Notes: a model not told the origin generated them from the sequence alone. 64,000 nucleotides of DNA from Aequorivita sp. (GCA_034675805.1 JAUCCX010000001.1:2384741-2448740), one strand, 5' to 3'. Positions 28,383-45,769 are shown, counted from the first letter of the stretch. Made by a program: numbers and translations.

Positions 28383-28455
<73 letters not shown>

Positions 28456-29653: not shown

Positions 29654-30133
29654 CTACCTATTGTCCATTTCTCCAATCACGGGAATATTCTCTAAGATTG
29701 TGGTTCTTAATTTACTCAGTATATAACCTTCGATTTGGTAAAATTGGGCAGCCGTTTTTACATCGACCTTTTTCTTTATTTTTCTGGCATAGGTACCGAT
29801 CAGCCTGTCTGTATTGACTTGGAGCTGCATCATTTCGTTGAGGATATCTCCGGTCGCAGCATCATCTAAGGAGTCATACCCATTGGCATAAGAGTTTAAT
29901 AATGCCAAGCGTCTTTTACCTAGATCTTTGCGTTTAATTTCGTATTCATCATAAATTGTCCAAAAGGCATCTTTTTTAACTCCATCAAGTTGAATAAATT
30001 CAGCAACCATGGCTTTCTTTTCCATACCAAATACAGATTGCATTAAATCGATTTCTTCTTTATTGCTTTGAGCAAATACAGTAGAAGATAGCGTAACTAA
30101 GGCTAGAGTAAGTGTAAAAATTAATTTTTTCAT
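29654..30133 (-). CDS. Exported 159-aa helical protein, family unknown (paralog of 42498..42977)
   Basis: It has a signal peptide (..STVFAQ). It aligns end-to-end by eye with the 42498 product (..SVFGMEKKA.VA.FI......FW..YDEYE.KRK.LGK.RL.LLN.Y...AAQF.QIEGY....R..I.E.IP.IGE). Confidence 0.7.
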   Translation of the reverse strand: MKKLIFTLTLALVTLSSTVFAQSNKEEIDLMQSVFGMEKKAMVAEFIQLDGVKKDAFWTIYDEYEIKRKDLGKRRLALLNSYANGYDSLDDAATGDILNEMMQLQVNTDRLIGTYARKIKKKVDVKTAAQFYQIEGYILSKLRTTILENIPVIGEMDNR

Positions 30134-30189: not shown

Positions 30190-30438
30190 TTATTGTTTAT
30201 TGTTGTCTTTCGAGATCATTTCTAGAATTTCCTCTTCCAGATTTCGTTGTACCTCTTCATACTCCTCAATCTCCGCAGTATGTTTATTCGGTGTGTTTCT
30301 CATATCCAGAATCATTGAAGAACATAGAATGTGATCTAAACACAGATCTCTGAAATTTTCATCGGTTTGAAAAAGAAAATCAATCTTCTCTTCATAATCC
30401 GGAAATATTCTAACGATAGAAACGATTTTATTTAGCAT
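30190..30438 (-). CDS. Small cytoplasmic protein 'A' (82 aa), unknown family; one of three paralogs
   Basis: The product starts MLNKIVSIVRIFPDYEEKIDFLFQTDENFRDLCLDHILC and has an acidic helical C-terminus. It has no signal peptide. Box A lies 53 nt upstream. Confidence 0.75.
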   Translation of the reverse strand: MLNKIVSIVRIFPDYEEKIDFLFQTDENFRDLCLDHILCSSMILDMRNTPNKHTAEIEEYEEVQRNLEEEILEMISKDNNKQ

Positions 30439-30490
30439 TGAATGTCAGCCGGATTTTAATTATTCATGTAAATGTATATCAGCCTGATCA

Positions 30491-30526
30491 AAATTGTAAG
30501 TGTTACACGGTTACTTAACGGTTAAA
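30491..30526 (-). promoter_or_regulatory. Box A: conserved operator/promoter element
   Basis: The minus strand reads TTTAACCGTTAAGTAACCGTGTAACACTTACAATTT. It contains the direct repeat AACCGT-N5-AACCGT. The gene-proximal edge is 53 nt from the ATG at 30438. Confidence 0.7.
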
Positions 30527-30591
30527 GGGATGTGTATTTATTTGTTTATCAACCCTATAACGAAGCTTGTGAAATTTTAGAAGTTGGGATT

Positions 30592-31734
30592 TTAAAATGC
30601 TTCCGCGAAACTTATATAAGTTCCGTGAATACCACCTCTCCCAAAGCCAAAATCAAGACGTAGGTTTATTTTATTTTTGCTATCCACTTTCACTCTTAAG
30701 CCAGCTCCATAAGATGGCCAAAATCCATCGAAGGACAATTTATCATAAGATGGTGCTACCCTACCTGTTCCTACCCATCCTACTACTCCAAAAATATTCC
30801 ATACTGGCATTCTATATTCAAGCTGGGTATCTACAAGTACTTTATCTCGGAGTGCGCCTTCGTAATATCCTCTCATTTTATTTGCCCCACCAAGTAGCGC
30901 CAAATTATAAAAGGGAGCATCACCACCTAAAGATGTTGTGGTAGCTTGAAGGGCGATAACATGATTCAGCCAAGGATTAAAATATTTTCGCACATCCAAT
31001 TCAAACCTTGTGTATTGATAAGCGCTACCTAATGATTTTTCGTTGAAAATAAATTGCGCGGAAGCAAAAGCTCCATTAAATGGATTATAACGGTTATCAC
31101 GGCTATCAAATTCCAAAGAAAATCCCAAGCCGAAATTAGTTCCTCCGTTTAGTCCTGTTACTTGATCTTTTACTAAGAAACTGGTTGAGTCTGCTTCAAC
31201 TTTAATATAATCTGCAATATCAAGGATGGCACCTACATACATATTTTTATGAACGCGGATCATAGGATTAGTTTTAAAGCGAATTTGCTGTGTTGAAATT
31301 TCCTCTACATCTTCAATAGAAACACCATTCCCTATGCCGAAAATATATTCAGGAACTTCTCTATAGCTGAAAAAACTGATGATTATATATTTGTTTTCCT
31401 TCAGAATTAAATCGTTAGCCACTACAGCATTTATTCTTCCTTTTGAAGAAAAGGAAAGAAGTTCTGATATTTTAGATGGTTTGCTAATTGTATCCTTTTT
31501 TACGGGATGGAAGGCATTGAATTTGGCCAAACCCAAAACATTACCCGCCTCAGAGGAATAACTAACAATGGGAACAGGTATTACTTTGAATAGTTTCTCC
31601 GCTTTTTTATTGAATTTATCAAATTTGGATAGGCTATCCTCAGGCTTTTCGGGAGTGTCGGTTTGGGCTAGAATTCCGTTAATGCAAAGTATCAACAAAA
31701 TACAATAGCCAACAAATATTTTTAGAAACGTCAT
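30592..31734 (-). CDS. Omp85/BamA-family outer-membrane beta-barrel without POTRA domains
   Basis: It has a signal peptide (..INGILAQ). The C-terminal barrel motifs are ..LLGGANKMRGYYEGALRDK.. and the terminal ..GIHGTYISFAEAF. It is a paralog of 48361..49485. Confidence 0.75.
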   Translation of the reverse strand: MTFLKIFVGYCILLILCINGILAQTDTPEKPEDSLSKFDKFNKKAEKLFKVIPVPIVSYSSEAGNVLGLAKFNAFHPVKKDTISKPSKISELLSFSSKGRINAVVANDLILKENKYIIISFFSYREVPEYIFGIGNGVSIEDVEEISTQQIRFKTNPMIRVHKNMYVGAILDIADYIKVEADSTSFLVKDQVTGLNGGTNFGLGFSLEFDSRDNRYNPFNGAFASAQFIFNEKSLGSAYQYTRFELDVRKYFNPWLNHVIALQATTTSLGGDAPFYNLALLGGANKMRGYYEGALRDKVLVDTQLEYRMPVWNIFGVVGWVGTGRVAPSYDKLSFDGFWPSYGAGLRVKVDSKNKINLRLDFGFGRGGIHGTYISFAEAF

Positions 31735-31790
31735 AAAGTAGACTTGTTAGTTTGATTGTTGGTAGCAAACCATTTTTTCTGCTATAATGA

Positions 31791-32039
31791 TTATGAATAA
31801 TTGTTAACTTTCAATATTATTTGCAAGATTTCCTGTTCCAAATCTTTTTGTATCATTTCATACTCCTCAATTTCCACAGTATTTTCAGCTAGTTCTTTTT
31901 TCATTTTCAGTACCATGGCTGCACATAAAATATGGTCTAAACATAGATCACGGAAATTTTCATCGGATAGGAATAGAAAATCAATCTTCTTCTCAAAACC
32001 CGGAAATATCCGAACAATAGAAACGATTTTATTATGCAT
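31791..32039 (-). CDS. Small cytoplasmic protein 'B' (82 aa), paralog of A and C
   Basis: The product starts MHNKIVSIVRIFPGFEKKIDFLFLSDENFRDLCLDHILC. Box B lies 53 nt upstream. Confidence 0.75.
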   Translation of the reverse strand: MHNKIVSIVRIFPGFEKKIDFLFLSDENFRDLCLDHILCAAMVLKMKKELAENTVEIEEYEMIQKDLEQEILQIILKVNNYS

Positions 32040-32091
32040 AGGAATTCAACCGAATTTTGATTGGTGATGTAAATTTATAACAGACTAATCT

Positions 32092-32127
32092 AAATTGTAA
32101 GTGAAATACGGTTACTTAACGGTTAAA
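32092..32127 (-). promoter_or_regulatory. Box B: conserved operator/promoter element
   Basis: The minus strand reads TTTAACCGTTAAGTAACCGTATTTCACTTACAATTT. It is identical to box D over its first 32 nt. Confidence 0.7.
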
Positions 32128-32235
32128 AGAAGTGTGAACCCACAATAAACACAGCCCTTGGAGTGAGGCCTGTATGATTTTAGAAGATAGGGTTTTAAGG
32201 ATTTTCTATTTCAAATTATTCTTATGAAAGAAGAT

Positions 32236-33897
32236 TTAAGCTATACTAAGTCCAGCTTTTTTCACCCCTTCAATAATTTCTCCAATCAAAGGTTTATCAA
32301 GCAGAAATGAATCTAAGGTAGCATAAAGAGTACTCATAATCTTTGAATACTTTTCATTTAATAGTCTTACATCGTCTTGTGCCTCATCTTCTTTACCGAG
32401 TTGGCCTTTGGCGGCTGCTTTTGTCAAGGGATCGAGAAAGACATCTACGGTTTCTATTTTATTGGCATATATAAGAGCTTTATCGTATTGTTTCTTTTGG
32501 TAATGAACTAAGAAAAAACCAAAATAAAACCACCAGGGACAATGCGGATTCAGATCTAAAGATTGGGTAAGCAATACCTCAGCACGATCAAATTCTCCAG
32601 CGCAGGCCAAATTAAATCCAATACCACCCATTAAAGAAACAGAACCTGGGTTTAAGGACAGTGCATATTCCAATGCCTTGACTGCTTCGTTTTTGTTTTG
32701 CAAATAAACATTCAACCAGCCATATTCTTGATTTGCATGTTGGCACTGCGGATCTATCCTCAATGCTTTTTTGGTGAGTTCAAGAGCTATCTTTAAAGGG
32801 TCATTTACTGTTGGGTAGCCGAGCGAATGGGCCAGTACATATAGCTCTGCCAACATAGCCAGTCCTGTTGGATAATCTGGATCATGGCGTATTGCATTTT
32901 CTAGCGCCTCCCGGGTTTTTAAATAGGTCTCCTTCGAGTAGTTCATATGGAAATAGTAGTTCCAAAAGGTAGCATCAAAAGCTTCCATACTTGAAGCGAG
33001 TGGACGATTGGATCTAGAGTTATCTTGAATAATACATCCGTAGTATCCTCCTAACACTGAAAAAATATTTTCAACGATCTGATCTTGGATAGTTATTAGG
33101 TTTTCAAAATTTAGGGGATGATTGTATGTTTTGGACCAAACTTGCATCCCATTCACCGTTTTTACCATCTCTACATTCACCCGGATATCGCGAGATGAAC
33201 GTTTTACAGATCCGGTTATAATGTAATGCACCCCTAAATCGGAACCTATAATTCGGATATCTTCAGGATTAGTAGCGTACTTACGTGTGGAATGATGAGC
33301 AACCACGTCAATATCCTGAGACCTACTGAAGAGCCGAGTAAGTTCCTCCCCAAATCCGTCTACAAAAAACTGATACTCCCCGCCCTGCCATAAGTTGCGA
33401 AATGGAAGTACCGCCAAGGTGATCTTTGAACGCGAAAACACAACCGAATTATTATCATCGGTCTTTGTTGTAGTCTTTGTGTTTGTATTTTTCTCAGACT
33501 CTTCCTTTACAATTTCCTTTGTCTTATTGATTAAATGCGGTCGAAACATTGGCACATACGTGCCTTTAACAACCTCAATCTTTATGGTGTCTGTAATTCC
33601 TATACCCATGTAATATTCGTTCAAAAGTCTCCTTAGTCTGCCGGCATGAATACGAACAATAGCGTCTATTTGTGGATTAAAGTCATCGGGTTTTCCCAAA
33701 GCACTTACGGCAATGGTATATTCCTTTAAGCCTTCGGTGTTGCCCTCTAGGGTTTCTTCAACAATAAACTTTAGAAAATTTGATAGTACAGAAGAACGGG
33801 AAAACATATCACTAGAAAGAATTCGATCCAGTTCATCTTGGATCTCCTTTTTTGAGAAATCGGGTAATATGCATTTATCTGATGAGTCGAGCGACAT
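32236..33897 (-). CDS. Multidomain regulator 1: conserved N-terminal (putative DNA-binding) domain + TolB_N-like domain + C-terminal TPR
   Basis: The N-terminus is ..ELDRILSSDMFSRSSVLSNFLKFIVEETLEGNTEGLKEYTIAV..DFNPQIDAIVRIHAGRLRRLLNEYY. The middle is ..TLAVLPFRNL...FFVDGFGEELTRLFS...GVHYIITGSVKRS..IRVNV (TolB_N-like). The C-terminus has several TPR-like repeats. I see no TM segment. Confidence 0.7.
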   Translation of the reverse strand: MSLDSSDKCILPDFSKKEIQDELDRILSSDMFSRSSVLSNFLKFIVEETLEGNTEGLKEYTIAVSALGKPDDFNPQIDAIVRIHAGRLRRLLNEYYMGIGITDTIKIEVVKGTYVPMFRPHLINKTKEIVKEESEKNTNTKTTTKTDDNNSVVFSRSKITLAVLPFRNLWQGGEYQFFVDGFGEELTRLFSRSQDIDVVAHHSTRKYATNPEDIRIIGSDLGVHYIITGSVKRSSRDIRVNVEMVKTVNGMQVWSKTYNHPLNFENLITIQDQIVENIFSVLGGYYGCIIQDNSRSNRPLASSMEAFDATFWNYYFHMNYSKETYLKTREALENAIRHDPDYPTGLAMLAELYVLAHSLGYPTVNDPLKIALELTKKALRIDPQCQHANQEYGWLNVYLQNKNEAVKALEYALSLNPGSVSLMGGIGFNLACAGEFDRAEVLLTQSLDLNPHCPWWFYFGFFLVHYQKKQYDKALIYANKIETVDVFLDPLTKAAAKGQLGKEDEAQDDVRLLNEKYSKIMSTLYATLDSFLLDKPLIGEIIEGVKKAGLSIA

Positions 33898-34425
33898 TTA
33901 GAGTTTATAAACTGATTAACAATGTATTGATGTTTAATATTTTATACTAAAAACAAGACATTCACAATAATCAATTCACACCCTACATTTTGATTTTTCC
34001 TGAGCCGTCTCACTTGGGAGAACGAAAATATGAAAAGAGAATAGAATAATCTAGCGTTCAATGAGTAATATTTAACATAAATTATCTATCAAATATAGTT
34101 AAAATTGTTAAAAAAATATTTCTATTAATTTAACTAAGCCATATATCATTGGCTTTGAGAACCGATGATAAACTAGTAGAAGATAAAAATCGGAGTTTGC
34201 CTATTCTGGTTGGATCGTTGAGCAATAGGGTCTATGCAATACTAAGCTTAGGTCTCATCTCACAAAATGGAGGCTACCGTTATTTATTTGTTAGCATAAT
34301 AAAATAGAAAAGGGATGAAAGTTGAAAATTCTGTTTTTATACGTAATTGCAAAAAGAACAAGCAAATGCAATAAATAGATTTAAGGCTTTCTTGTTATAT
34401 ATTTCAAGCTTTTAATAATTGATTA

Positions 34426-35448
34426 TCAATTATCAAAAGGAAATATTTTCAGCCAATCATTCTTCATACTAACTACATTCCAGTTACCTTCTTTTGCTGC
34501 ATTTAGCGAAGCATTATCCTTTTCGGCGTAAGCATATTCACGCTCTTCATCATCGTGGTTAATCAACAATTGAAAATTGGGCAATGGATTTGTTTGACTA
34601 AAAGAGAGTTGACCTATATCTCCCCCGCTTCTAACGTTTCCGCCAACAAATATTGGAATACGACCAATTTGTTGTTGAATAGCAATGGGCTTAAGTTCCT
34701 TATCGCACATAAATAAATTTTCATGGCCTTTCATAACCTTCCATGAACCATCCTCCATCTTACTATAGGTATTTAAAGCAAAACTCCCGATGGTATTCTC
34801 TGGAACTATACCGTAAGCAGACGTACCTATTACTCGCATAAAATCCGTTCCTCCACCGGAACATAAATATGTTTTAAAATCATTCTCACGCAGGTATTGC
34901 AAAAGCTCCAGCATGGGTTGATAAATTGTTTCAGAATATTTTTTATTAAACTTTGAATGCCGAGTATCTTTAAAAAATTCTTCAACGTCCTTATTAAATT
35001 GTTGAATAGGCATCCCAGTGGAGGTTACAACAAATAGTTTCATCAACTCTCTTCCGTGGTTATTCATTAAATCATCTACTAAGAAACTTTTATCGCCGTC
35101 GAGAATTGCCTTATACGGCAATTGATCTTTCCATTCGGGATGTTCATGAGCCATTTTTTTTATTTGATAAACAACGAATTCCAACTGAACTACAGGTTGC
35201 TCGCACCACAAAGTACCATCATTATCAAAAGTAGCTATGCGCTCTTCTGGGTTTACATAATTGGCTCCACCTTTTTGGGTAACTTGATTCACAAAATCAA
35301 TAATATCCGTTTTATTTGGGCCGTCTTTCCAGGATGGTAAAGGATTCAATGAAACAGCTTTGTCGTTAGTTTCTTGTTTTGGATTTGGCTGGTTACAGCC
35401 TGAAATCACTACCAATAAAATACTAGTTAAGAGTAAAAAATTTTTCAT
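34426..35448 (-). CDS. HAD-superfamily hydrolase-like lipoprotein (putative periplasmic phosphatase)
   Basis: It has the lipobox VVISGCNQ and the HAD motif I, ATFDNDGTLW. Later GGN..SGGDIGQL could be motif IV-like. Confidence 0.55.
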   Translation of the reverse strand: MKNFLLLTSILLVVISGCNQPNPKQETNDKAVSLNPLPSWKDGPNKTDIIDFVNQVTQKGGANYVNPEERIATFDNDGTLWCEQPVVQLEFVVYQIKKMAHEHPEWKDQLPYKAILDGDKSFLVDDLMNNHGRELMKLFVVTSTGMPIQQFNKDVEEFFKDTRHSKFNKKYSETIYQPMLELLQYLRENDFKTYLCSGGGTDFMRVIGTSAYGIVPENTIGSFALNTYSKMEDGSWKVMKGHENLFMCDKELKPIAIQQQIGRIPIFVGGNVRSGGDIGQLSFSQTNPLPNFQLLINHDDEEREYAYAEKDNASLNAAKEGNWNVVSMKNDWLKIFPFDN

Positions 35449-35501
35449 TTTAATAATTTTTAAATTTTTATAATATAAAACGGATTAAATTATAGTTAAG
35501 G

Positions 35502-35744
35502 TCAATTCTCGTTCTTCATAATTCTTTGGAGAATTTCTTCCTCCAAATTTCTTTGTAAGTCTTCATATTCCATAAGTTTCGTATCATTTTTAAGTGCATC
35601 ATTTTTCATTTCCAGTGCCATAGATGCACATAAAATGTAATCTAAACATAGATCCCTAAAATTTTCATCAGTTTGAAATAGAAAACCAATCTTCTCCTCA
35701 AAATCTGGAAATATTTGAATAATAGAAATTATTTTAGTATTCAT
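35502..35744 (-). CDS. Small cytoplasmic protein 'C' (80 aa), paralog of A and B
   Basis: The product starts MNTKIISIIQIFPDFEEKIGFLFQTDENFRDLCLDYILC. I chose the start at 35744, not the track's 35765. That choice aligns with A and B and reproduces the 53-nt box-to-ATG spacing. Confidence 0.7.
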   Translation of the reverse strand: MNTKIISIIQIFPDFEEKIGFLFQTDENFRDLCLDYILCASMALEMKNDALKNDTKLMEYEDLQRNLEEEILQRIMKNEN

Positions 35745-35796
35745 AGGAAGTAATCCAAATTTCATTTAATAGTATAAATGTAAATCAGACTAATCC

Positions 35797-35832
35797 AAAT
35801 TGTAAGTATTACACGGTTACTTAACGGTTAAA
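35797..35832 (-). promoter_or_regulatory. Box C: conserved operator/promoter element
   Basis: The minus strand reads TTTAACCGTTAAGTAACCGTGTAATACTTACAATTT. Confidence 0.7.
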
Positions 35833-35850
35833 AGTGAGGTGAATTTATAT

Positions 35851-35876
35851 AAAAACAGCCCTTATAATCAGGGCTA
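35851..35876 (-). terminator. Candidate terminator after regulator 2
   Basis: On the minus strand, AGCCCT-(7 nt)-AGGGCT is followed by GTTTTT. It separates regulator 2 from box C. Confidence 0.4.
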
Positions 35877-35940
35877 TATAGTTTTTGATAAGAGAATCCA
35901 AAGTTTGTTTATTCTATTTTCAAGCGCTAAAAAAATTGAT

Positions 35941-37599
35941 TTAGGAAATAGTAACTCCCGCTTTTTTTGCGCCTTCAATAATTTCGGAAATTAAAGACTT
36001 ATCTAGAATAAAAGTGCCAAGGGAAGCTTCAAGATTACCCATAATTTCTGAAAAATCTTCGTTCAACCGTCGTACATTCGCTTGAGCTTCCGATACCAAT
36101 CCCAATTTCCCAAAAGCTGCAGCTTTAAATAAAGGATCCAGGAAGACATCTTCGGAAGCATTAAACTTTTGGGCATACATCAAAGCTTTTTTATACTTTC
36201 CACTCTGATAATAAATAAAGAATAAAGCCTCGTAATACCAATAAGGACAATATGGATTTAAATCCAATGACCTGTGCAGCAAAACTTGCGCACGCTTATA
36301 CTCCCCCAAACATGCAAAGCCAAAACCCAGTTGACCATCCACCGAAGCCGAATTATGGCCCAAGGTTTTACTATACTCAAATGCTTTAATTGATTCCTCC
36401 TTATCTCCCAAGTAGATGTTTGCCCAGCCATATATTATGTGGGCGTATTGTGAGAATGGAGCTAGTTTTATCGCTTTTTTGATTAACTTAATGGCTTCAT
36501 TAATGGGATCTGCTATATTTGGATATCCAAGCGAGTGTGTAAATAAATAGGTATCTCCCAAGATAACCAGGCACATTGCGTTATTCGGATCACTTTGAAG
36601 TACCTTTTCCAGAGCCTTTCTACTTTTTACACAGGCCTCCATAGAATGTGTTTTTTGTGCGTAATAATTCCACAAAATAGCATCAAAAGATTGGATATCC
36701 TGCTTCATTTCAGACTCCACTAACTTCATTGTATCTCTAACTAAAAATCCATATTGGCCACTTAAAATTGAAAAAACATCATGGTCAATTTGATCCTGAA
36801 TATCAATTATTTCATCTTTTTCTAGATCGTGCGTATAATTCTTAGACCAAATTTGAATACTATTCACGGTTTCAATCAATACAACATTTACTCTAATATC
36901 TTTATTGGAGCGTTTTACGGAGCCCGTTATAACGTAATGAACTCCTAAGTCCGCACCAATTACACGGATATCTTCATTAATAGTGGCGTACTTTAAAGAA
37001 GAAAAATGCGCAACCACGGCAATATCCTCTTCAGTACTAAAGATCCTTGTAAGTTCTTCCCCAAATCCATCAACAAAAAATTGATATTCTCCATTGGGGC
37101 ATAAATTTCGAAATGGAAGGACCGCTAAGGTTAGTTTTGATCGGGAATATACCGTTGGCTTATCCTCAGAACCTGGTGCTTCCTTGGTTTCAAGTTTTAT
37201 CTTAACGGGAGTTTTCACTTCTAATTGCTGTGTAGATTGTGTGCGAAATGCTGGGACATACGTACCCTTAACCACTTCAATCTTTATAGAATTATTGAGC
37301 CCAGCTCCCATATAATACTCGTTTAACAACCTTCTTAATCTACCAGCATGAATACGGACAATAGCATCTATTTGCGGGTTAAAATCATCAGATTTTCCCA
37401 AGGCATTTACGGCAATTATATATTCCTTAAGTCCTTCAGTTTTACCTTCTACAGTTTCTTCTACAATGAACTTCAGAAAATTAGTTAAAACGGAAGATCT
37501 GGAAAAAATATCACTAGCTAAGATTCGATCCAATTCATCTAATACCTCTTTTTTGGAGAATTCGGGAAAAACACGTTTTGATGATGGGTCAGGCTGCAT
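35941..37599 (-). CDS. Multidomain regulator 2 (paralog of regulator 1)
   Basis: The domain order matches regulator 1. A 99-residue N-terminal stretch differs from regulator 1 at 14 positions by my count. The TPR region is much more diverged. Confidence 0.7.
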   Translation of the reverse strand: MQPDPSSKRVFPEFSKKEVLDELDRILASDIFSRSSVLTNFLKFIVEETVEGKTEGLKEYIIAVNALGKSDDFNPQIDAIVRIHAGRLRRLLNEYYMGAGLNNSIKIEVVKGTYVPAFRTQSTQQLEVKTPVKIKLETKEAPGSEDKPTVYSRSKLTLAVLPFRNLCPNGEYQFFVDGFGEELTRIFSTEEDIAVVAHFSSLKYATINEDIRVIGADLGVHYVITGSVKRSNKDIRVNVVLIETVNSIQIWSKNYTHDLEKDEIIDIQDQIDHDVFSILSGQYGFLVRDTMKLVESEMKQDIQSFDAILWNYYAQKTHSMEACVKSRKALEKVLQSDPNNAMCLVILGDTYLFTHSLGYPNIADPINEAIKLIKKAIKLAPFSQYAHIIYGWANIYLGDKEESIKAFEYSKTLGHNSASVDGQLGFGFACLGEYKRAQVLLHRSLDLNPYCPYWYYEALFFIYYQSGKYKKALMYAQKFNASEDVFLDPLFKAAAFGKLGLVSEAQANVRRLNEDFSEIMGNLEASLGTFILDKSLISEIIEGAKKAGVTIS

Positions 37600-37869
37600 T
37601 GAATGTTGATATGTAAATTAGTATTGTACTGATATATAGGATGGTAAACTAAAGATAAGACTTACAGAATAACCAATTCACATTCTCCAATTTTATTTTC
37701 CAAGAAGTGTCTCTATTAGAAAGATAGAAGTTTGTTAAGGCAATCAGCCAATGCTAAAGTTCAATATGTTTTGTTAAAATTCTATCTCTCAAATATAGTT
37801 AAAATTATCAAAGGTATTTTTTGTTTTTTAGTCGGAAAAGGCACTGTTTACAAAGGTTTTACAATTTGG

Positions 37870-37901
37870 TTTAACCGTTAAGTAACCGTATTTCACTTAC
37901 A
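37870..37901 (+). promoter_or_regulatory. Box D: conserved operator/promoter element heading the + strand gene array
   Basis: The + strand reads TTTAACCGTTAAGTAACCGTATTTCACTTACA. It lies in the divergent region between regulator 2 (start 37599) and the DUF1254/DUF1214 gene (start 38112). Confidence 0.65.
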
Positions 37902-38111
37902 TGGTGAATAGTATGTCCTTATTTTTGATTGTGATTATTTGTGTTCTGACGGGATATTCAATTAATAAATTGAATAAATATTTATCAGAAAGCTCATTTA
38001 TAGAATCGAATACTAATAAACAAAATCACTAAAATTTATGTACCACAAATTACTATATACAGGAATCGTGAGCGTGTATTTCGCTCTTAAATCAACTAAA
38101 AACTATTAATT

Positions 38112-39710
38112 ATGAAATTAAATCAACTATTACCAATCGCACTTAGTGTTTTTTCTCTTTTGGCCATAAGCTGCCAGAATACCAATGAAAAACATAACAC
38201 AGTAAATGAAACTGAAGAAGTAAGCTCAATGGAATCAAATTCCATAGCATCCATTAAATCGAAATATAATACAGATGTTCCTGAAAAAATATTGACTCCC
38301 CCGATTGTAGAGACAAGAATAGGAACACTTAATTTCTTTGATGGATTGCCTTCTGACGAAACCGTCAAATTAGTGTATGATCAACTCGATTTTTCTAGAG
38401 GCGTGGAAACGTTTTTAAGTGGAATTCCGGCAACCTCTATAGAAGGTCTTCGGTTAGGTTCTGAAGATCTTGGTGCTACGAAATCCAATCAAGTTGTAAT
38501 TTTTGATGAACTTCTGGATTCAAATCCGTTATTCTTAACAGGAAACACAAGTACGGTTTATGCCAGTACGTTTTTAGATCTGGAAAAAGATGGTCCTACA
38601 GTAGTGGAAGTTCCAGCAGGATCGGGTCCTGGTACTGTAAACGATGCTTACTTCAGATTCGTTGTAGATATGGGTGCCCCTGGACCAGATAGAGGGAAAG
38701 GCGGGAAATATTTAATCTTACCTCCTGATTATGAAGGAAAAACACCAGAAGGTTATTTCGTGGCGAAATCTACGAGTTACGTCAACTGGGTAATCTTAAG
38801 AGGGTTTTTAGTAGATGGGAAACCAGAAGCATCCTCTAAAATGTATCGTGAGGGTTTAAAAGTATATGCACTTAAGGATAAGGACAATCAACCTAAAATG
38901 GAGTTTATTGATGCATCCACAAAAGCTTTTAATACCATCCACGCTAATGATTATGAGTTTTATGAAGAATTAAGTCATGTTGTAGAACGCGAACCTGTCT
39001 CCTTTTTAGACCCTGAATTACGAGGCATATTTGCCAGTATTGGAATTGAAAAAGGAAAGCCATTTGCTCCAGATGCGAGATTAGAGGGAATATTACGGGA
39101 AGCAGTTGCTGTTGGAAATGCTACAGCACGAGCTATTGTCTTTAAATCGAGAGAAAAGGAGTCTTCTATATTTGAAAAAGGACCTTGGGAATCTGGGTTT
39201 CTTGGCGGTAGTTACGAATGGATCAAAGACGAAGGAAATGGTGGTCGTTATTTAGATGCAAGAACACGATTCTTCTACATGGCCACTGTAAATACACCAG
39301 CTATGGTGTTAAAAATGATAGGCTTAGGGTCACAATATGCATTGGCACATCATGATTCTCAAGGCAACTATTTAGACGGTAATAAAAACTATACTTTAAA
39401 TATACCTGCAAATGTTCCAGCTAAAGAGTTTTGGTCAGTGGTTATGTACGACCCTCAAACGCGATCTATGTTGCAAACTGGTCAAGCGCTTCCAAGTGTG
39501 AGTAGTCAAAGAACTCCACTGGTTAAAAATGAAGATGGCTCGGTTACTCTTTATTTTGGACCAAAGAATACTGCTCCTAAAGGCAAAGAAGCCAACTGGC
39601 TGCAATCTGTATCAGGTAAAGGTTTCTTTGTACTATTCAGAATCTATGGCCCACTTGAACCTTGGTTTGACAAAACATGGCAGCCAGGAGAATTCGAATT
39701 GGTTAAATAA
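38112..39710 (+). CDS. DUF1254/DUF1214 domain lipoprotein
   Basis: It has the lipobox LLAISCQN. The DUF1254-like region is ..VNDAYFRFVVDMGAPGPDRGKGGKYLILPPDYEG.. and the DUF1214-like region is ..EFWSVVMYDPQTRSML...GFFVLFRIYGP. Confidence 0.75.
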   Translation: MKLNQLLPIALSVFSLLAISCQNTNEKHNTVNETEEVSSMESNSIASIKSKYNTDVPEKILTPPIVETRIGTLNFFDGLPSDETVKLVYDQLDFSRGVETFLSGIPATSIEGLRLGSEDLGATKSNQVVIFDELLDSNPLFLTGNTSTVYASTFLDLEKDGPTVVEVPAGSGPGTVNDAYFRFVVDMGAPGPDRGKGGKYLILPPDYEGKTPEGYFVAKSTSYVNWVILRGFLVDGKPEASSKMYREGLKVYALKDKDNQPKMEFIDASTKAFNTIHANDYEFYEELSHVVEREPVSFLDPELRGIFASIGIEKGKPFAPDARLEGILREAVAVGNATARAIVFKSREKESSIFEKGPWESGFLGGSYEWIKDEGNGGRYLDARTRFFYMATVNTPAMVLKMIGLGSQYALAHHDSQGNYLDGNKNYTLNIPANVPAKEFWSVVMYDPQTRSMLQTGQALPSVSSQRTPLVKNEDGSVTLYFGPKNTAPKGKEANWLQSVSGKGFFVLFRIYGPLEPWFDKTWQPGEFELVK

Positions 39711-39724
39711 AAGTTTTAAAGCAA

Positions 39725-39756
39725 AGTAAATGGCGTATTAAAAAACGCCATTTACT
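39725..39756 (+). other. 12-bp perfect stem-loop immediately after the first gene of the + array
   Basis: The sequence is AGTAAATGGCGT-ATTAAAAA-ACGCCATTTACT. No T-run follows it. Confidence 0.8.
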
Positions 39757-39786
39757 AAACGTTAGAGTATATTTTAAAAATAGACC

Positions 39787-40521
39787 ATGAAAATAAAATC
39801 CTACACCCTTCGAATCTTTTTCCTAAGTGTATGCCTCCTTCTAATGATATCATGTAAAGAAGGAACCGCTGCCCAAACGCAAACGCAAACCCAAATAGAA
39901 AAAGAAACGGAAACTACTCAAACTCAAAATCAAACAGAAGGAATAGCTCATTTCGAATCTGGCCTCAATGCTATAGACGCCAACAACATGCCATTGGCGT
40001 TTAAGGAATTTTTGGAGGCTGCTAAAGATGGTCATGCCGATTCCCAATTCAATGTTGCACTAATGTATGAGCAGGGCCTTGGAGTTAGTAAAAATGAAAA
40101 GGAAGCGTTTTCTTGGTATGGCAAATCCGCCGCGCAGGGAAATTCGGGTGCGCAATTTAATCTTGGCGTTCTCTATGAAAATGGGCGTGGCACTACGATT
40201 GATTTCGCAAAAGCTAATGAATGGTATCTTAAAGCTTCGGTACAAGGAGATGGGCTGGCCGTAGGTAATCTGGGTATGCTGTACATACGTGCAAAGGGAG
40301 TTAAAGAAAACTTGATAGCGGGTGTAGCACTACTGATAATGTCCGCCTCGATGGATACTTCTCCCGAAAACCAGGCAAAAAACAATATTGCAGCAATTCG
40401 CGGTTTAACTACTTCAATGGTTTCTGAAGCCCAATCTCTTTCAGATGAGATGAGTAGAGCAAAGAATATATTGGAGCCTCTCGATAATTATTTGAAAGAA
40501 TCAAAGAATAGTGGAAAGTAG
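39787..40521 (+). CDS. Sel1-repeat (SLR/TPR-like) lipoprotein
   Basis: It has the lipobox LLMISCKEG, a TQ-rich linker (AQTQTQTQIEKETETTQTQNQTE), and then Sel1 repeats (..ADSQFNVALMYEQGLGVSKNEKEAFSWYGKSAAQGNSGAQFNLGVLYENGRG..). Confidence 0.8.
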   Translation: MKIKSYTLRIFFLSVCLLLMISCKEGTAAQTQTQTQIEKETETTQTQNQTEGIAHFESGLNAIDANNMPLAFKEFLEAAKDGHADSQFNVALMYEQGLGVSKNEKEAFSWYGKSAAQGNSGAQFNLGVLYENGRGTTIDFAKANEWYLKASVQGDGLAVGNLGMLYIRAKGVKENLIAGVALLIMSASMDTSPENQAKNNIAAIRGLTTSMVSEAQSLSDEMSRAKNILEPLDNYLKESKNSGK

Positions 40522-40744
40522 AATAAATAATTAAATTTTTTCCTTTAGATAGGCTCAAGGATAAGCCGCTTTCATAGTCATAAGAGTTTATGGACTATCA
40601 TATTAAAATAAAAAAATTATAAAAAGACAAGAATCTTATTGGTTAAAACCATCATAGACTAATCCTTATCGGTTTACCAAGTAAAAATTTTCGACTAACG
40701 ATTGTATTAATAAGCCCTTTTTTGTTTTAAACAAATTATACATT

Positions 40745-41518
40745 ATGAAAAATCATTTTAAGCGACACTTAGTTTTATCAGCTATATCTTTCTTAGCGGT
40801 TATAAATCTTAATGCACAGGAAACCCCAATTGCAGATGAAAGTACTACTGGCTGGAATTTTATTATAGAGCCGTATATGATGTTACCAAATATGAATGGC
40901 GAAACAGGGATAGGTGATCTTCTTCCCACAGTTGAAGTTGATGCCAATGTAGGTGATGTCTTTGGACACCTAAAAATGGGAGCCATGCTCTATATGGAAG
41001 CTACCAACGATACTTGGGCCGTAAGTTCAGATGTATTGTATATGAAGTTGGGTCAGGATATACAAGCGCGAAAATTTATTACCGGTGGTGATGTAACCAT
41101 GCAACAAGTGGCTTGGGAAGTGGCTGGATTAAGAAAAGTAATGCCTTGGTTGGATGCCGGGATAGCTTTAAGATTAGTGAGCTTAGATATGGAAATAAAT
41201 ACCAAAACCTTACTCACTGAACGCAATGCTTCCACAAACGAAACTTGGGTAGATCCAGTGATTGTAGCCAGAACACAAGGGCTTATTAATGATAAATGGC
41301 TTTACAATCTTCGTGGTGATTTTGGTGGCTTTGGAATTGGTTCAGATTTTACGTGGCAGCTACAAGCAGATTTTGGATATAAGTTCTCTAAACTATTCTA
41401 TACCACACTAGGCTATCGCGTTATCAGTATTGATTATGATAAAGGAGGCGGGTCTGATCGTTTTTTATATGATGTGAATACCTATGGGGCCGTAGTTCGC
41501 TTTGGCTTTAACCTGTAA
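40745..41518 (+). CDS. Outer-membrane beta-barrel protein, family unknown
   Basis: It has a signal peptide (..INLNAQE), alternating amphipathic strands, and the C-terminus ..YGAVVRFGFNL. Confidence 0.55.
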   Translation: MKNHFKRHLVLSAISFLAVINLNAQETPIADESTTGWNFIIEPYMMLPNMNGETGIGDLLPTVEVDANVGDVFGHLKMGAMLYMEATNDTWAVSSDVLYMKLGQDIQARKFITGGDVTMQQVAWEVAGLRKVMPWLDAGIALRLVSLDMEINTKTLLTERNASTNETWVDPVIVARTQGLINDKWLYNLRGDFGGFGIGSDFTWQLQADFGYKFSKLFYTTLGYRVISIDYDKGGGSDRFLYDVNTYGAVVRFGFNL

Positions 41519-41596
41519 TACTTACATCTAAAGTCAGAAAAAGAAAAGGTTAAATTAAAATAACAAATTATTCAACGACAATTAAACTAAATAGTT

Positions 41597-42403
41597 ATGA
41601 AAAAAATCACACTTTTATTTACAGCCTTACTGATGGCAACTATAGGTTTCGCTCAAGAGGAACCTAAAACAACTGATGCAGATGCCTTGGCAAAGCAACT
41701 TCAAAATCCAATATCCAGTCTGATTAGTGTTCCTATTCAAGGAAACTTTGATTTTGGATTTGACCCTAGTAATGGGTCTAGAATGATTGTAAATATTCAG
41801 CCAGTAATTCCTATGAGTATTAGTGAGGATTGGAATTTAATAGCTAGGGTTATTTTACCTGTAGTTTCCCAAACTGACATTTATGGACCGAGTGGGAATC
41901 AATTTGGACTTGGGGATGTTACCATGAGTGCTTTCTTTTCTCCTAAGGCACCAACCAAAGGAGGATTAATTTGGGGTGTAGGTCCGGTTCTTTCGATTCC
42001 AACCGCTACCGACCAATTATTAGGGTCCGAGAAGTTTGGGGTTGGACCAACTGCGATTGCCTTGACACAAATAGGGAAAATAACACTGGGGGTTTTGGTA
42101 AACCAAGTATGGTCTATAGCAGGAAGCGAAGACAGAGCGGATATAAATAACACCTTTATTCAACCATTTTTTGCAAAAAACTTTAAGGGCGGTTATGCTT
42201 TAAGCTTAAATACCGAATTAAGCCAAAATTGGGAGGCAGATGCAACCTCAGGAACTATCAATCTTGTTGGTTCAAAAGTAATTAAATTAGGAAAGCAACT
42301 AACACAAGTAGCTGTTGGACCACGTATACCCTACGGAAATGGCAATAATTCAGACTGGGGATTTAGAGCCCAATTTACGCTGCTATTCCCTGCGGGGAAA
42401 TAG
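41597..42403 (+). CDS. Outer-membrane transporter-like barrel (MetA-pathway/'Phenol_MetA_deg'-like)
   Basis: It has a signal peptide (..TIGFAQE). ..LQNPISSLISVPIQGNFDFGF...IVNIQPVIPMSISEDWNLIARVILPV.. matches my memory of this family. Confidence 0.5.
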   Translation: MKKITLLFTALLMATIGFAQEEPKTTDADALAKQLQNPISSLISVPIQGNFDFGFDPSNGSRMIVNIQPVIPMSISEDWNLIARVILPVVSQTDIYGPSGNQFGLGDVTMSAFFSPKAPTKGGLIWGVGPVLSIPTATDQLLGSEKFGVGPTAIALTQIGKITLGVLVNQVWSIAGSEDRADINNTFIQPFFAKNFKGGYALSLNTELSQNWEADATSGTINLVGSKVIKLGKQLTQVAVGPRIPYGNGNNSDWGFRAQFTLLFPAGK

Positions 42404-42497
42404 AAAACAGTAAGAAAACCAAATAGGACAAAGCTTGTCTGTTAGATTTCAACACAATTATTATTAAAATAAATTTTAACACTCTAAACTTAAACCT

Positions 42498-42977
42498 ATG
42501 AAACGTAAAATATTAAGTATTACCGGCATCTTCTTTTTTGCATTGTTTTTTGCTCAAACCTCAAACGCTCAAACTACCAAGGAAGAAACAGATTTATATC
42601 AGTCAATTTTTGGAATGGAGAAAAAAGCTATTGTTGCCGATTTTATTGGTGTTGACAGCGGAAATCCTTTTTGGTCTCTTTATGATGAATACGAAACCAA
42701 ACGGAAAGAATTAGGAAAACAACGTTTAAGTCTATTAAATAACTATGTAGCTAATTACGACAATCTTAATGATGCCAAATATGATGAAATTGTAACTGAT
42801 ATGATCTCTCTTCAGAAAAAGACTAATAAGTTAATGGATCAATATTATAAGAAAATCAAGAAAGCTTCTGGTTCAAAAGTAGCTGCGCAGTTTTTTCAAA
42901 TAGAAGGTTATTTTCTAACTCAAATTAGAGCTACCATTTTTGAAGGAATACCATATATAGGCGAATTCGGTAATTAA
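42498..42977 (+). CDS. Exported 159-aa helical protein (paralog of 29654..30133)
   Basis: It has a signal peptide (..TSNAQ). See the evidence for 29654..30133. Confidence 0.7.
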   Translation: MKRKILSITGIFFFALFFAQTSNAQTTKEETDLYQSIFGMEKKAIVADFIGVDSGNPFWSLYDEYETKRKELGKQRLSLLNNYVANYDNLNDAKYDEIVTDMISLQKKTNKLMDQYYKKIKKASGSKVAAQFFQIEGYFLTQIRATIFEGIPYIGEFGN

Positions 42978-43010
42978 AATTTCAATAAAGTAAATTCTAA
43001 AATAAATATT

Positions 43011-43520
43011 ATGAAAAATATAATTTCAAAATTAAGTTTAGCTATTCTTTTTATCAGCCTATCCGCTACCTCATTTGCCCAAAGTGCAGGGGAAGCAGTA
43101 GCGAAAAAAGTAGGGGTTTATGTTTTCCCTACCAAAAACCAAACCCCTGAACAACAAGCAAAAGATCAGTCTGAATGTTACACATGGGCAGTGCAGCAAT
43201 CTGGTTTCGATCCAATTAATCCTACTGTAGTTCAGGCTAAGCAAGTTCAGCAAGGTCCTGATGGCGCTGCAGTAGTTGGTTCTGCAGGTGGTGCAGCTGT
43301 TGGAGTTGCTATAGGTGCAATTGCTGGTGATGCTGGTAAAGGTGCCGCTATTGGTGCTGTTAGTGGTGCAGTGATGGGCCGTAGAAGAGGAAATATGGCG
43401 AAAGCTAAGGAACAGAAACAAGCTAATAATCAAGCCGCACAAGCTAATCATAACCTAGAAGATGGCTTTAAAAAAGCCTTTTCAGCTTGTTTAGAAGCAA
43501 AGGACTACACAGTTAAATAA
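43011..43520 (+). CDS. Glycine-zipper (YMGG-like) exported protein
   Basis: It has a signal peptide (..TSFAQS) and the Gly/Ala zipper GAAVVGSAGGAAVGVAIGAIAGDAGKGAAIGAVSGAVMG. Confidence 0.6.
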   Translation: MKNIISKLSLAILFISLSATSFAQSAGEAVAKKVGVYVFPTKNQTPEQQAKDQSECYTWAVQQSGFDPINPTVVQAKQVQQGPDGAAVVGSAGGAAVGVAIGAIAGDAGKGAAIGAVSGAVMGRRRGNMAKAKEQKQANNQAAQANHNLEDGFKKAFSACLEAKDYTVK

Positions 43521-43541
43521 ATCACTTTAAAAACCGTACCG

Positions 43542-44315
43542 ATGAAAAAAATATATGCAATATTATTATTACTCCTTATTGTTGGAGTTGAGGCAACATT
43601 TGCACAAGTATCTGATAAGGACTGGAAGTATTTATTGGTAAGAGAAGATGTTGTAAAACCTTCAATGAATAAATACTACGAGGCTACACTTACTGATTTG
43701 AAGCAGTTTCTGACCGACAATAAAGTAAAACATGTGAATTACATGACGCAGTTACAGGATAACTTTAATTATTCGCACATAACTCCGCTTAAGAGTATGG
43801 ACGATATTGAGGGTGGCCTTGAGTCATTTATCAAAGGCAAGGAAAGATCTGCGGAGTTTGACTTAATTTGGGGAGATCTGAATGAAACCATTGAAAGCTA
43901 TAGCTATTATGTGGTAAAGTATGAACCCGAAATGTCTTACGTGCCTGATGGGAAAGTCTGGCTCGAAGAGGCGCCTTACCGTAGATGGAATTATTTATAT
44001 TTTGAACCTGGCACAGAAAAGGAGGCAGAAAAAATTCTTCTAGCCTATAAAAACCTTTATAAAAATAAAGGAGTTAAAAGTGGATTTAGAGTATTTAAGG
44101 GCGTGATCGGCTTAGATCAACCCGTTATAATGTTTACCACTTGGTCAAAAACTCCATTAGATTATCAAAAAGAACTTCAAGAAAGTATTGCTTTATTAGA
44201 CGAAGAGGGAGCTATTTTATGGGTCTCTATGATGGAACTAGTAAGAAATGCTGAAACTATGGAAGGTTGGTATTTACCACAATATTCATTCACACCAGAA
44301 AACCAGAAAAAATGA
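43542..44315 (+). CDS. Hypothetical exported protein
   Basis: It has a signal peptide (..EATFAQ). I recognise no family. Its stop overlaps the next start (ATGA at 44312-44315). Confidence 0.55.
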   Translation: MKKIYAILLLLLIVGVEATFAQVSDKDWKYLLVREDVVKPSMNKYYEATLTDLKQFLTDNKVKHVNYMTQLQDNFNYSHITPLKSMDDIEGGLESFIKGKERSAEFDLIWGDLNETIESYSYYVVKYEPEMSYVPDGKVWLEEAPYRRWNYLYFEPGTEKEAEKILLAYKNLYKNKGVKSGFRVFKGVIGLDQPVIMFTTWSKTPLDYQKELQESIALLDEEGAILWVSMMELVRNAETMEGWYLPQYSFTPENQKK

Positions 44316-44950
44316 AAAAACTAATTTTAGTACTCGCATTTATTCCTTTTTTGATAACAGGTTGTGCAAGTTCCTATTTACAGGAATCTACCAATGCTAG
44401 TAACATCAAAAAAAAATATGACAAAATATTGGTAATTGCAAAAACCAATGATAAATCAGCTCGATTAAATTTTGAAAACCAGGTTGTAAAGGACTTCGCT
44501 GCAAAGGGCATCGAGGCTTCGTCTTCCATGTCAGTCCTTCAAACAAATAGTTTTTCTGAGCAACTATCCGCAGAAGAAATTGAAAATTTAAGACTTCAGT
44601 TAATTAAAGACGGGTACAGTGGTGTTATAGTAACATATTTGATCAGTAAAGATCAATATTCCGATGTAGTATCTGGAGGTACATCCACCGCGTACGCGCC
44701 AGTTCGTTATGGCAGATTTGGCAGATACTACGGTGCTTATCCTGTGACTTATTGGGAGCCAGATCAGGTTCAGGTTGGAATGGAATACACCTTAGAAAGT
44801 TGTTTTTATGATATTACGGAAGATAAGAAGGACAATTTACAATGGGTTGGCAGATTTAAAGTTAAGGATCCTAGTTCTTTGACCAACACCATAGAGAAAT
44901 ATTCTAAAGAACTCACAGATCAATTATTATTGGGTAGCATCGCTCAATAG
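44312..44950 (+). CDS. DUF4136-like lipoprotein, paralog 1 of 3
   Basis: It has the lipobox FLITGCASS. It shares a frame with 45850 and 49588: ..I.VIA.T.....R..FE..........G..A....; ..G...V.VT......; a Tyr/Gly-rich middle; ..Y.LE...Y....... Confidence 0.6.
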   Translation: MKKLILVLAFIPFLITGCASSYLQESTNASNIKKKYDKILVIAKTNDKSARLNFENQVVKDFAAKGIEASSSMSVLQTNSFSEQLSAEEIENLRLQLIKDGYSGVIVTYLISKDQYSDVVSGGTSTAYAPVRYGRFGRYYGAYPVTYWEPDQVQVGMEYTLESCFYDITEDKKDNLQWVGRFKVKDPSSLTNTIEKYSKELTDQLLLGSIAQ

Positions 44951-45043
44951 GTTCATTTCTAATGATTTTTTAAGGAGCATATTATATCATACAACAGGTT
45001 TATTTAATTATTTTAATAAGGCAATCTAATCTCTATTATGCTT

Positions 45044-45769
45044 ATGAAAAAATTAGTCTTTACTGTAATTCTTCTCTCATCCATAATCAACATTAATGGT
45101 CAGGAACTTAATGAGGAAACTATAAACAAGAACGAAATAGATCTGGTGATTTCAGATTTACTTGATGGAGCCTTCCAGCTTAAATACGAGCGTGCTCTAG
45201 GAAAGCATTTCTCCGTTAATCTGGGTTTGGGTTATAAGGGGGAAGATGGATTTATTAATCGGTCTGGTATCGATACAGAGAAGATAAAAACCAATGGTGT
45301 TTCCTATTCGGGATTTAAAATCATTCCAGAAGTACGTTATTATTTAAGAAATGCCGATTATGCTGCAATGAAAGGTTTTTATTTTGGGGCGTATCTAAAA
45401 TATTCCAATTTTCAATCAAAACTTGATGGCAAGTATATTAGTGACGCTGGGAAGTATTTTGAGTTAGAATTTGATGCAGATATTCAAGTAACCTCTATTG
45501 GAATAATGGTTGGATATAAATTACCGCTCTCGGAAAGGTTTTCATTGGATTTTTTAATTGCAGGCCCCGGTGCCGGGTTTTATGATTTTTCAATTGAAAA
45601 TAAAAAAGATTTACCGGACGAATTTTATGAAGATTTTAATGATGCTCTAAATAAATATCCCGTATTCGATGTCTTGGATGGAGATTTTAGGTTTAGCGCT
45701 GCCCGTAGAAGATCCAACTTCAATCTATTGTCTTTAAGATATGGCATTTCACTTGGATATTCATTCTAA
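45044..45769 (+). CDS. Outer-membrane beta-barrel protein, family unknown
   Basis: It has a signal peptide (MKKLVFTVILLSSIININGQ) and the C-terminus ..LRYGISLGYSF, ending in an aromatic residue. Confidence 0.55.
   Translation: MKKLVFTVILLSSIININGQELNEETINKNEIDLVISDLLDGAFQLKYERALGKHFSVNLGLGYKGEDGFINRSGIDTEKIKTNGVSYSGFKIIPEVRYYLRNADYAAMKGFYFGAYLKYSNFQSKLDGKYISDAGKYFELEFDADIQVTSIGIMVGYKLPLSERFSLDFLIAGPGAGFYDFSIENKKDLPDEFYEDFNDALNKYPVFDVLDGDFRFSAARRRSNFNLLSLRYGISLGYSF

Follow-up and report, generated by a model that had tools for sequence, protein, structure and literature searches.

We have analysed a 64,000-nucleotide (nt) stretch of Aequorivita sp. DNA (GCA_034675805.1 JAUCCX010000001.1:2384741-2448740; this whole stretch is referred to as the window, and all positions are counted from its first letter), and in particular a sequence element, here called the box, which lies there in four copies (A–D) around the genes for two related regulators. 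Boxes A, B and C each precede a gene for a small helical protein (paralogues A, B and C), and box D lies between regulator 2 and a gene for a DUF1254/DUF1214 protein (coordinates of all features in Table 1). Judged by comparison with their counterparts in other genomes, the four boxes are the upstream half of a predicted, rigid 66-base-pair (bp) promoter module conserved across Bacteroidota, which would read TTT-TAACSGT-N4-TAACSGT-N5-ACTTAY-N19-TAnnTTTR-N4-(+1).

The boxes and their predicted promoter module

When a box copy is defined as TTTAACCGTTAAGTAACCGT-N5-ACTTAC, none is expected by chance in the window. The 17-mer AACCGTTAAGTAACCGT has exact matches at 30507-30523(-), 32108-32124(-), 35813-35829(-) and 37873-37889(+); tolerating as many as three mismatches leaves the number at four, against 0.13 expected, and none of 100 shuffles reached four, while a 30-nt degenerate form of the box gives four matches against 0.00 expected. 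These matches bear out the four copies listed in a reading of this DNA that preceded our work (the sequence-only reading), which also had the orientation right, all four copies facing their downstream genes, and which had recognized boxes B and D as identical over 32 nt (TTTAACCGTTAAGTAACCGTATTTCACTTACA), as we find by alignment. Its statement that boxes A, B and C differ only in their core holds as well, except that this core comprises 5 nt (GTAAC, ATTTC and GTAAT, respectively) and not 3–4 nt. The gene-proximal edge of the box was said to lie exactly 53 nt from the ATG in A, B and C, and it does so (30491-30438, 32092-32039 and 35797-35744); for box C this distance requires the start to be the ATG at 35744, which an alignment of homologues favours over the in-frame upstream ATG at 35765. 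The direct repeat with its 11-bp period is likewise present, but its sequence is better given as TAAC-S-GT than with a fixed centre, since the centre of each repeat is C or G in other genomes, with all four combinations represented (CC 22, GC 17, GG 16 and CG 8), and occasionally A or T.

Terminator-like hairpins stand immediately upstream of boxes B and C, and we conclude that these two boxes head separate transcription units, as had been proposed for the boxes in general. In the alignment, boxes A, B and C have a further 70 nt or so of upstream similarity in common, of which box D, sharing the box alone, has nothing; a local duplication of the A, B and C modules did occur. The similar region takes in the hairpins found before B and C.

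An instance set of 54 distinct boxes from about 25 Bacteroidota genomes was aligned on the box; the −7 element was not imposed by the search pattern, and the boxes themselves were mostly retrieved with the motif, which inflates their apparent conservation. In all 54 instances TA lies exactly 20 nt past ACTTA; after two variable positions it is followed by TTT (98, 100 and 85% at the successive positions) and then by G (30 instances) or A (24 instances), and directly 5′ of the box TTT is found in 96–100%. In Flavobacterium psychrophilum the sigma-A −7 box, TAnnTTTG, occupies −12 to −5 relative to mapped starts (PMC9723704), and from the match to it we take the downstream TAnnTTTR to be the Bacteroidetes sigma-A −7 element; a box without such an element does not occur among the 54 instances. 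The canonical −33 TTTG is absent from them, none being present at −36 to −33, and ACTTAY occupies that slot.

The predicted +1 was set 5 nt beyond the last base of the −7 element by extrapolation from the consensus in PMC9723704, and A is found there in 61% of the instances. With this placement TTT would lie at −62 to −60, the first hexamer at −59 to −54, the second at −48 to −43 and ACTTAY at −37 to −32. The centres of the elements are 11 bp apart (heptamers near −56.5 and −45.5, ACTTAY near −34.5), a spacing which would put both heptamers and ACTTAY on one face of the helix. Two expectations of the sequence-only reading, that the box abuts or overlaps the promoter and that its repeats are phased by one helical turn, agree with what we find, the hexamers lying just upstream of the −33 position and the distance to the sigma-A −7 element being constant in every instance. 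Its 53-nt leaders with shared blocks need to be redrawn: the block ATTTACAT is indeed shared, but it is the −7 element (TAcaTTTA), and the leader proper, that is, the predicted 5′ untranslated region of A, B and C, would be about 26 nt long. In most box-headed genes the ATG follows 19–30 nt past the predicted start, and there is no Shine–Dalgarno sequence.

Other assignments for this region were considered and set aside. Reading the box as a promoter for an extracytoplasmic function (ECF) sigma factor (AAC...CGT) does not fit its spacing or conservation, and the real −7 element lies 20 nt downstream; promoters of the E. coli −35/−10 type (TACAAT) are no better, sigma-70-type matches being at shuffle level (34 against 36.6 expected). 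The 43-amino-acid (aa) open reading frame (ORF) after box D (37901-38032, plus strand) has an ATG that abuts the box and begins before the predicted start at about 37932; it probably lies inside the promoter and is not a gene. Similarly, an ATG of the Gelidibacter sulfatase gene that abuts the box falls inside the promoter, and the start is most likely about 52 nt further on, at the signal-peptide-like MKTKTAFSIII.

Distribution across Bacteroidota

A DNA-only scan of 185,579 species genomes with WACSGTTAAGTWACSGTNNNNNACTTA returned 35 stretches, against about 0.3 estimated chance matches, and all 35 are from Bacteroidota (Flavobacteriaceae, Cryomorphaceae, Cyclobacteriaceae, Cytophagales, Roseivirgaceae, Lentimicrobiaceae and Bacteroidales); there are one to five copies per genome, always facing a gene. 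That the box could instead be a dispersed repeat, the end of a mobile element or an element of a transcript, such as a hairpin or leader, and have no part in a promoter seems hardly credible. The 70 nt of upstream similarity among A, B and C would suit such an origin, as would the occurrence of a bare 20-mer from the box (see below) in unrelated contexts of huge metagenomes, albeit at about the rate of chance. However, the small number of copies, their orientation towards gene starts, their restriction to Bacteroidota and, in the window, their clustering round the regulators are not those of a dispersed repeat, and in the comparison with relatives that the sequence-only reading had called for, the box is invariant across classes whereas the flanking DNA has diverged. 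As regards an RNA element, transcription is predicted to begin only past the box, Rfam gave no match in the region, and the presence of all four central-base combinations leaves no base-pair covariation between the arms; the same observation disposed of an RNA hairpin that we had considered on account of the Algoriphagus copy, ACGGT...ACCGT, and it likewise sets aside a palindromic operator of the ordinary type.

Loci fetched by way of the small protein, and hence without selecting for the motif, tell the same story for the module. In Algoriphagus chordae (Cytophagia) and Gelidibacter japonicus (Flavobacteriia) the neighbourhood consists of regulator, small protein, DUF1254/1214 and sulfatase genes, with a box upstream of the small gene, the sulfatase gene and a DUF1254/1214 gene. 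The double heptamer stands upstream of the small gene at equal distance in the window and in six lineages, namely Algoriphagus (L003), Gelidibacter (L005) and four loci (L083–L086) reached through divergent small proteins. Three of these last four match the pattern perfectly and the other, L085, deviates: it retains the heptamers together with the TAAGT spacer (5915-5975 and 3840-3870), and CATGTA or ACATAC replaces ACTTAC. This drift marks the heptamers as the most constrained part and indicates that the instance set somewhat overstates the conservation of the 3′ element.

As a further control, metagenomes were scanned with a 20-mer, TTTWACSGTTAAGTWACSGT, that includes no ACTTAY and no −7 box. 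Among the 43 matches, ACTT[A/G]Y is present in 22, and each of these 22 has TA at the fixed spacing; the matches without ACTTAY, whose number is about that expected by chance for a 36-bit pattern, include none where a −7 element lies at this distance. The heptamers, ACTTAY and the −7 box consequently appear to travel together as one unit. A scan with up to six mismatches added a few more sites (with AACAGT, AACTGT or ACTTT), again 5′ of small-protein genes and with the −7 box where it is expected.

Bare double heptamers without ACTTAY or a −7 box were also seen in other repeat contexts, on four metagenome contigs (L066, L053, L074 and L075). In L066 and L075 another AACCGT(T) repeat follows a few bases downstream of the double heptamer; 'ttttccat' is present in L053, L074 and L075, and in L053 and L075 cattccc-type repeats come after it. 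A literature search with the motif string returned unrelated primer matches only.

Candidate readers of the box

The neighbouring regulators had been named as the obvious candidates for binding the box, and the DNA-only scan supports their candidacy: a regulator homologue lies within 8 kb in 31 of the 35 stretches, three of the other four come from genomes with a regulator homologue elsewhere, and the last is a 2.7-kb contig fragment. Regulators 1 and 2 are 57% identical overall, the N-terminal 120 or so residues being far more alike than the rest, and across classes this N-domain is 67–83% identical, a degree of conservation that fits the near-invariant box. In regulator 1, a putative DNA-binding domain (approximately residues 15–120) is followed by a middle region with an AVLPF motif, which may be TolB_N-like, and by tetratricopeptide (TPR) repeats; Pfam finds only the TPR repeats (about 325–480) in the regulators, and no hydrophobic segment was apparent in them by eye. 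The NCBIfam model for HilA/EilA (PRK12370) matches residues 153–487, approximately, of both regulators (E 3e-8 and 6.5e-7), with scores of 32.6 and 28.1 bits against a cut-off of 589 bits and over model positions 119–438 only; a BLASTP comparison of the regulators with YgeH was not significant. HilA is an activator of the OmpR/ToxR family and binds the invF and prgH promoters (PMC7232297), and in sequence the middle and TPR region of the window regulators is, in our reading, HilA-like.

For the N-domain, Pfam gave no Trans_reg_C (PF00486) match with the full regulators at E<=0.1 or with 27 N-domain homologues at E<=10, whereas the positive control, YgeH, matches at 2e-12. There was no match in a PDB sequence search and no N-domain alignment when hhalign was run against YgeH alone. 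An AlphaFold2 (AF2) model of the domain, with a predicted local distance difference test score (pLDDT) of 85, has four main helices and then a beta hairpin, without an N-terminal sheet; Foldseek found nothing significant with it, the weak top matches (E 1–4) being winged-helix proteins including an OmpR-type C-domain. Aligned by hhalign with the domains of PhoB, OmpR, CadC, CpxR and YgeH, DAIVRIHAGRLRRLL...KGTYV falls on the recognition helix and wing, the alignment being weak (33 columns, E 0.026, probability 1.9%). The assignment of the regulators to the OmpR-type winged-helix proteins made in the sequence-only reading is therefore not established. A profile of the N-domain family, which also takes in part of the linker and middle region, matches, at E<=1e-3, 21,973 cluster representatives (clustering at 50% identity), of which many are about 530–550 aa long. 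No Pfam or NCBIfam model names the regulator N-domain or the small protein, and the N-domain is a candidate for an uncharacterized DNA-binding domain that no Pfam model matches.

Considering these observations, we suggest, and hold to be probable though well short of assured, that the box is the site within an activator-dependent sigma-A promoter which is read by the neighbouring regulators, bound in tandem. Regulators 1 and 2 would be cytoplasmic proteins in which an N-terminal DNA-binding domain is joined to a TPR sensor region in a HilA-like layout, and their molecules would bind the two TAACSGT heptamers head to tail, centred at about −56.5 and −45.5. Once bound, they would recruit or stabilize sigma-A RNA polymerase at a promoter which, with its good −7 element and no −33 TTTG, would otherwise be weak. 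The gene for the 80-aa protein, situated directly downstream of a regulator gene and itself within the regulon, would close a feedback loop. Both the binding of the box by the regulators and the direction of control (activation) are what we infer here from sequence; the direct repeats keep their 11-bp period and their fixed distance to an intact −7 element, with the upstream −33 element missing, in the pattern-independent set also.

With the same protein bound, the opposite direction of control can be envisaged: the box would be an operator for repression or anti-activation, at which the regulator blocks polymerase or an UP-like element until a signal relieves the block. The sign of regulation is not readable from sequence, and the −7 elements are good matches to the consensus. 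Nevertheless, an operator here is improbable in our estimation, as the sites lie at −62 to −43, upstream of the core promoter and not over the −7 box or start, the promoters have no −33 TTTG, and activators typically show fixed helical phasing to the −7 box.

The first box-driven gene after the regulator encodes the small protein, a position from which it may be a feedback partner of the regulator; we put this forward as speculation. Paralogues A, B and C are 65% identical to one another. A conserved C-x5-C motif is present in the three window paralogues, and the other loci examined are mostly single-copy. The family is rare and unannotated, with 48 matches among 5.8 billion proteins, and the few matches with an organism name are all from Bacteroidota (Gelidibacter, Algoriphagus, Xanthomarina, a Flavobacteriaceae strain and a Bacteroidales metagenome-assembled genome, MAG). 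The predicted structure is a four-helix one (pLDDT 88), and neither Pfam, a PDB profile search nor Foldseek gave anything significant; one label from the Joint Genome Institute (JGI), 'YdcH/DUF465', found no confirmation in Pfam. Modelled in this way, the small protein is unlikely to be a DNA binder.

Several points weigh against the reading of the box as a site for tandemly bound activators. The box goes with the small protein no less closely than with the regulator, and association cannot separate the two. About 26 box positions are near-invariant for regulons of two to five sites, more than target-finding requires, and this excess suggests constraints beyond those of a simple activator. The retrieval of most instances with the motif itself has been mentioned above; the putative transcription starts at all boxes are extrapolated from the −7 consensus; and in the small-gene promoter of L085 the −7 box is 1 nt closer. 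Finally, an OmpR-type winged helix has no demonstrable match in the N-domain and is a lead, not a finding.

Alternatively, another protein might read the box, either an unlinked factor or a complex needing the 80-aa protein, in which case the TPR proteins would be co-regulated neighbours or signal-sensing partners. The equally tight linkage of the small protein would be explained in this way, as would the N-domain's want of a significant match to known DNA-binding families, and from its excess conservation one may suspect that the box is bound by more than one factor. Yet the small protein is predicted to have four helices and no DNA-binding fold, in layout and middle region the regulators are like HilA-type activators, the basic helix and hairpin of the N-domain align, if weakly, with the recognition helix and wing of OmpR, and no part of the regulator is as well conserved as the N-domain, as an invariant box would predict. 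We therefore regard a different reader as unlikely.

The excess conservation also bears on a second possibility, in which the regulator would be a promoter-specificity factor reading the 31-bp box, ACTTAY included, in place of sigma region 4 (by sigma appropriation or as a split sigma). ACTTAY is in helical phase with the heptamers and exactly in the −33 slot, the spacing to the −7 element is invariant (54/54), and conservation is well above the need of a small regulon. On the other hand, nothing sets this arrangement apart from ordinary class II activation, the CTTACA-like −33 sequence could be a mere weak contact for sigma, and in L085 the 3′ element and its spacing drift while the heptamers stay; a role as specificity factor is, we think, improbable. 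A broader proposal is that the N-domain founds a large DNA-binding family (about 22,000 clusters) and that the regulator, perhaps along with the co-transcribed 80-aa protein, reads the whole 31-bp box, −33 slot included, replacing sigma-A region 4. A module that substitutes for region 4 would account for some 26 positions, and their spacings, being frozen across three Bacteroidota classes; this too we consider distinctly unlikely, and tandemly bound activators at a sigma-A promoter remain our preferred reading.

Putative target genes, gene context and related systems

In the various genomes the genes directly behind boxes encode the small protein, a sulfatase-family protein of about 790 aa, a DUF1254/DUF1214 protein, a lipoprotein of about 202 aa, an Omp85-like protein and a protein homologous to the 257-aa member of the window array, and homologues of other array members recur in box neighbourhoods (p159, p268, Gly-zipper, OMP_b-brl_2, DUF502 and UPF0114). 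Nearly all of the recurrent target proteins are exported, and we propose a small and conserved regulon made up of secreted or outer-membrane (cell-envelope) proteins together with the 80-aa protein. Promoters of small-protein genes mostly have the core GTAAC or GTAAT, then ACTTAC and the −7 box TACATTTA; in those of sulfatase genes the core is mostly ATTAC, ATTAA or ATTTA, followed by ACTTAT in 9 of 13. Such differences in the core and last base (box positions 17–21 and 27) might serve to adjust promoter strength or to tell paralogous regulators apart. The DUF1254/1214 genes of three genomes have their ATG 212–252 nt past ACTTA, giving leaders of about 180–220 nt, in which no conserved sequence beyond the promoter was found; a literature search returned no paper that mentions DUF1254 together with DUF1214.

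The layout usual elsewhere is a box-headed gene, often that of the sulfatase, divergent from the regulator, with a second box and the small gene directly downstream of the regulator. The window reproduces this layout at regulator 2, with box D on one side and box C on the other, and adds a second regulator and two extra small-gene modules (Table 1). Orthologues of the DUF1254/DUF1214 gene behind box D are box-headed in Gelidibacter and a Bacteroidales MAG too.

Table 1. Boxes, predicted promoter elements, hairpins and genes in the window
Feature	Position	Strand	Description
Box A	30496..30526	-	TTT + TAACCGT-N4-TAACCGT + GTAAC + ACTTAC; predicted promoter positions -62 to -32
Box B	32097..32127	-	Variable core ATTTC
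Box C	35802..35832	-	Variable core GTAAT
Box D	37870..37900	+	Identical to B across 32 nt; divergent to regulator 2
Promoter A -7 element	30469..30476	-	TACATTTA, 20 nt after ACTTA; predicted start near 30464
Promoter B -7 element	32070..32077	-	TAAATTTA; predicted start near 32065
Promoter C -7 element	35775..35782	-	TACATTTA; predicted start near 35770
Promoter D -7 element	37920..37927	+	TATTTTTG, perfect consensus; predicted start near 37932; leader ~180 nt
Terminator-like hairpin	32153..32170	-	3′ of regulator 1, just before box B
Terminator-like hairpin	35855..35877	-	3′ of regulator 2, just before box C
Regulator 1	32236..33897	-	553 aa
Regulator 2	35941..37599	-	552 aa
Small protein paralogue A	30190..30438	-	82 aa, helical; first gene after box A
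Secreted 159-aa protein	29654-30133	-	Next after small protein A
Small protein paralogue B	31791..32039	-	82 aa; first after box B
Omp85-like 380-aa protein	30592-31734	-	Next after small protein B
Small protein paralogue C	35502..35744	-	80 aa; first after box C
Secreted HAD-family 340-aa protein	34426-35448	-	Next after small protein C
DUF1254/DUF1214 protein	38112..39710	+	First real gene downstream of box D

After the DUF1254/DUF1214 gene come a gene for a Sel1 protein and then the array (Gly-zipper, DUF3575, OMP_b-brl_2, Omp85, MetA-like, DUF502, DUF481 and UPF0114). From 38112 to 53549 on the plus strand there are about 18 genes, mostly for exported or outer-membrane-type proteins, with a box before the first gene only; gaps of 224 and 337 nt within the array suggest further promoters. 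A single box-D unit comprising all 18 genes would be a possibility only, as would the autoregulation through box D that the sequence-only reading had brought up. In the 528 nt upstream of regulator 1 (33898-34425) there are only short ORFs, none exceeding 62 aa, and neither a box nor an Rfam match is present. The box cluster and the genes upstream of it have a tRNA gene between them (28383-28455, plus strand; Rfam RF00005, 67 bits). Of two sets of Gelidibacter japonicus-like contigs compared (L004 and L005), one, from a Logan assembly, has two ORFs each for the regulator (318 + 157 aa) and for the sulfatase (424 + 399 aa), whereas both are intact in the NCBI genome; the splits are frameshifts or assembly errors.

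With regard to known systems, the regulators resemble HilA of the SPI-1 pathogenicity island of Salmonella, as well as EilA and E. coli YgeH, in having about 550 aa, an N-terminal DNA-binding domain (inferred in the window regulators), a middle domain and TPR repeats, and in having neither a receiver domain nor a membrane span. The HilA box reportedly consists of two hexamers 5 nt apart, from about −54 to −37, which would be the hexamer-N5-hexamer geometry seen here at nearly the same promoter position. The two differ in that Trans_reg_C is clear in YgeH and not detectable in the N-domain of the window regulators, and in phylum, promoter type, motif and regulon. OmpR-family winged-helix activators, such as PhoB at the Pho box and the Streptomyces antibiotic regulatory proteins (SARPs), act on tandem direct repeats that replace the −35 element. 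These systems and the promoters described here have in common 7-bp direct repeats with an 11-bp period, a rigid geometry, and a downstream promoter element that is kept where the upstream one is gone. The recruitment of polymerase proposed above would be similar to the way in which PhoB, SARPs and HilA act. Unlike PhoB and the SARPs, however, the window regulators have no receiver domain or BTAD and membership of their DNA-binding domain in that family is unproven, the core of each repeat, ACSGT, is palindromic, and a third, unrelated element, ACTTAY, fills the −33 slot. In comparison with the ordinary Bacteroidetes sigma-A promoter (−33 TTTG / −7 TAnnTTTG), the −7 element is canonical and the distance to the start codons is as expected, with 5′ untranslated regions of about 20–30 nt; the differences are ACTTAY for TTTG and some 40 bp of invariant upstream sequence at fixed spacing.

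The arrangement is thus of an already known kind, a tandem-repeat activator site fused to a promoter. We did not find described, in the databases and literature searched, such a site on a Bacteroidetes −33/−7 promoter, an unannotated domain in a HilA-like frame, or a regulon of envelope proteins of this sort. To our knowledge, few transcription-factor regulons have been defined in Bacteroidota outside polysaccharide utilization.

Finally, sequence alone has here yielded a testable promoter model, a candidate for the cognate regulator and a conserved putative regulon of uncharacterized envelope proteins. The box would be the first candidate DNA target for an N-domain family of about 22,000 clusters, and its rigid, over-conserved architecture may be well suited to the study of how activators act at the phylum-specific −33/−7 promoters.

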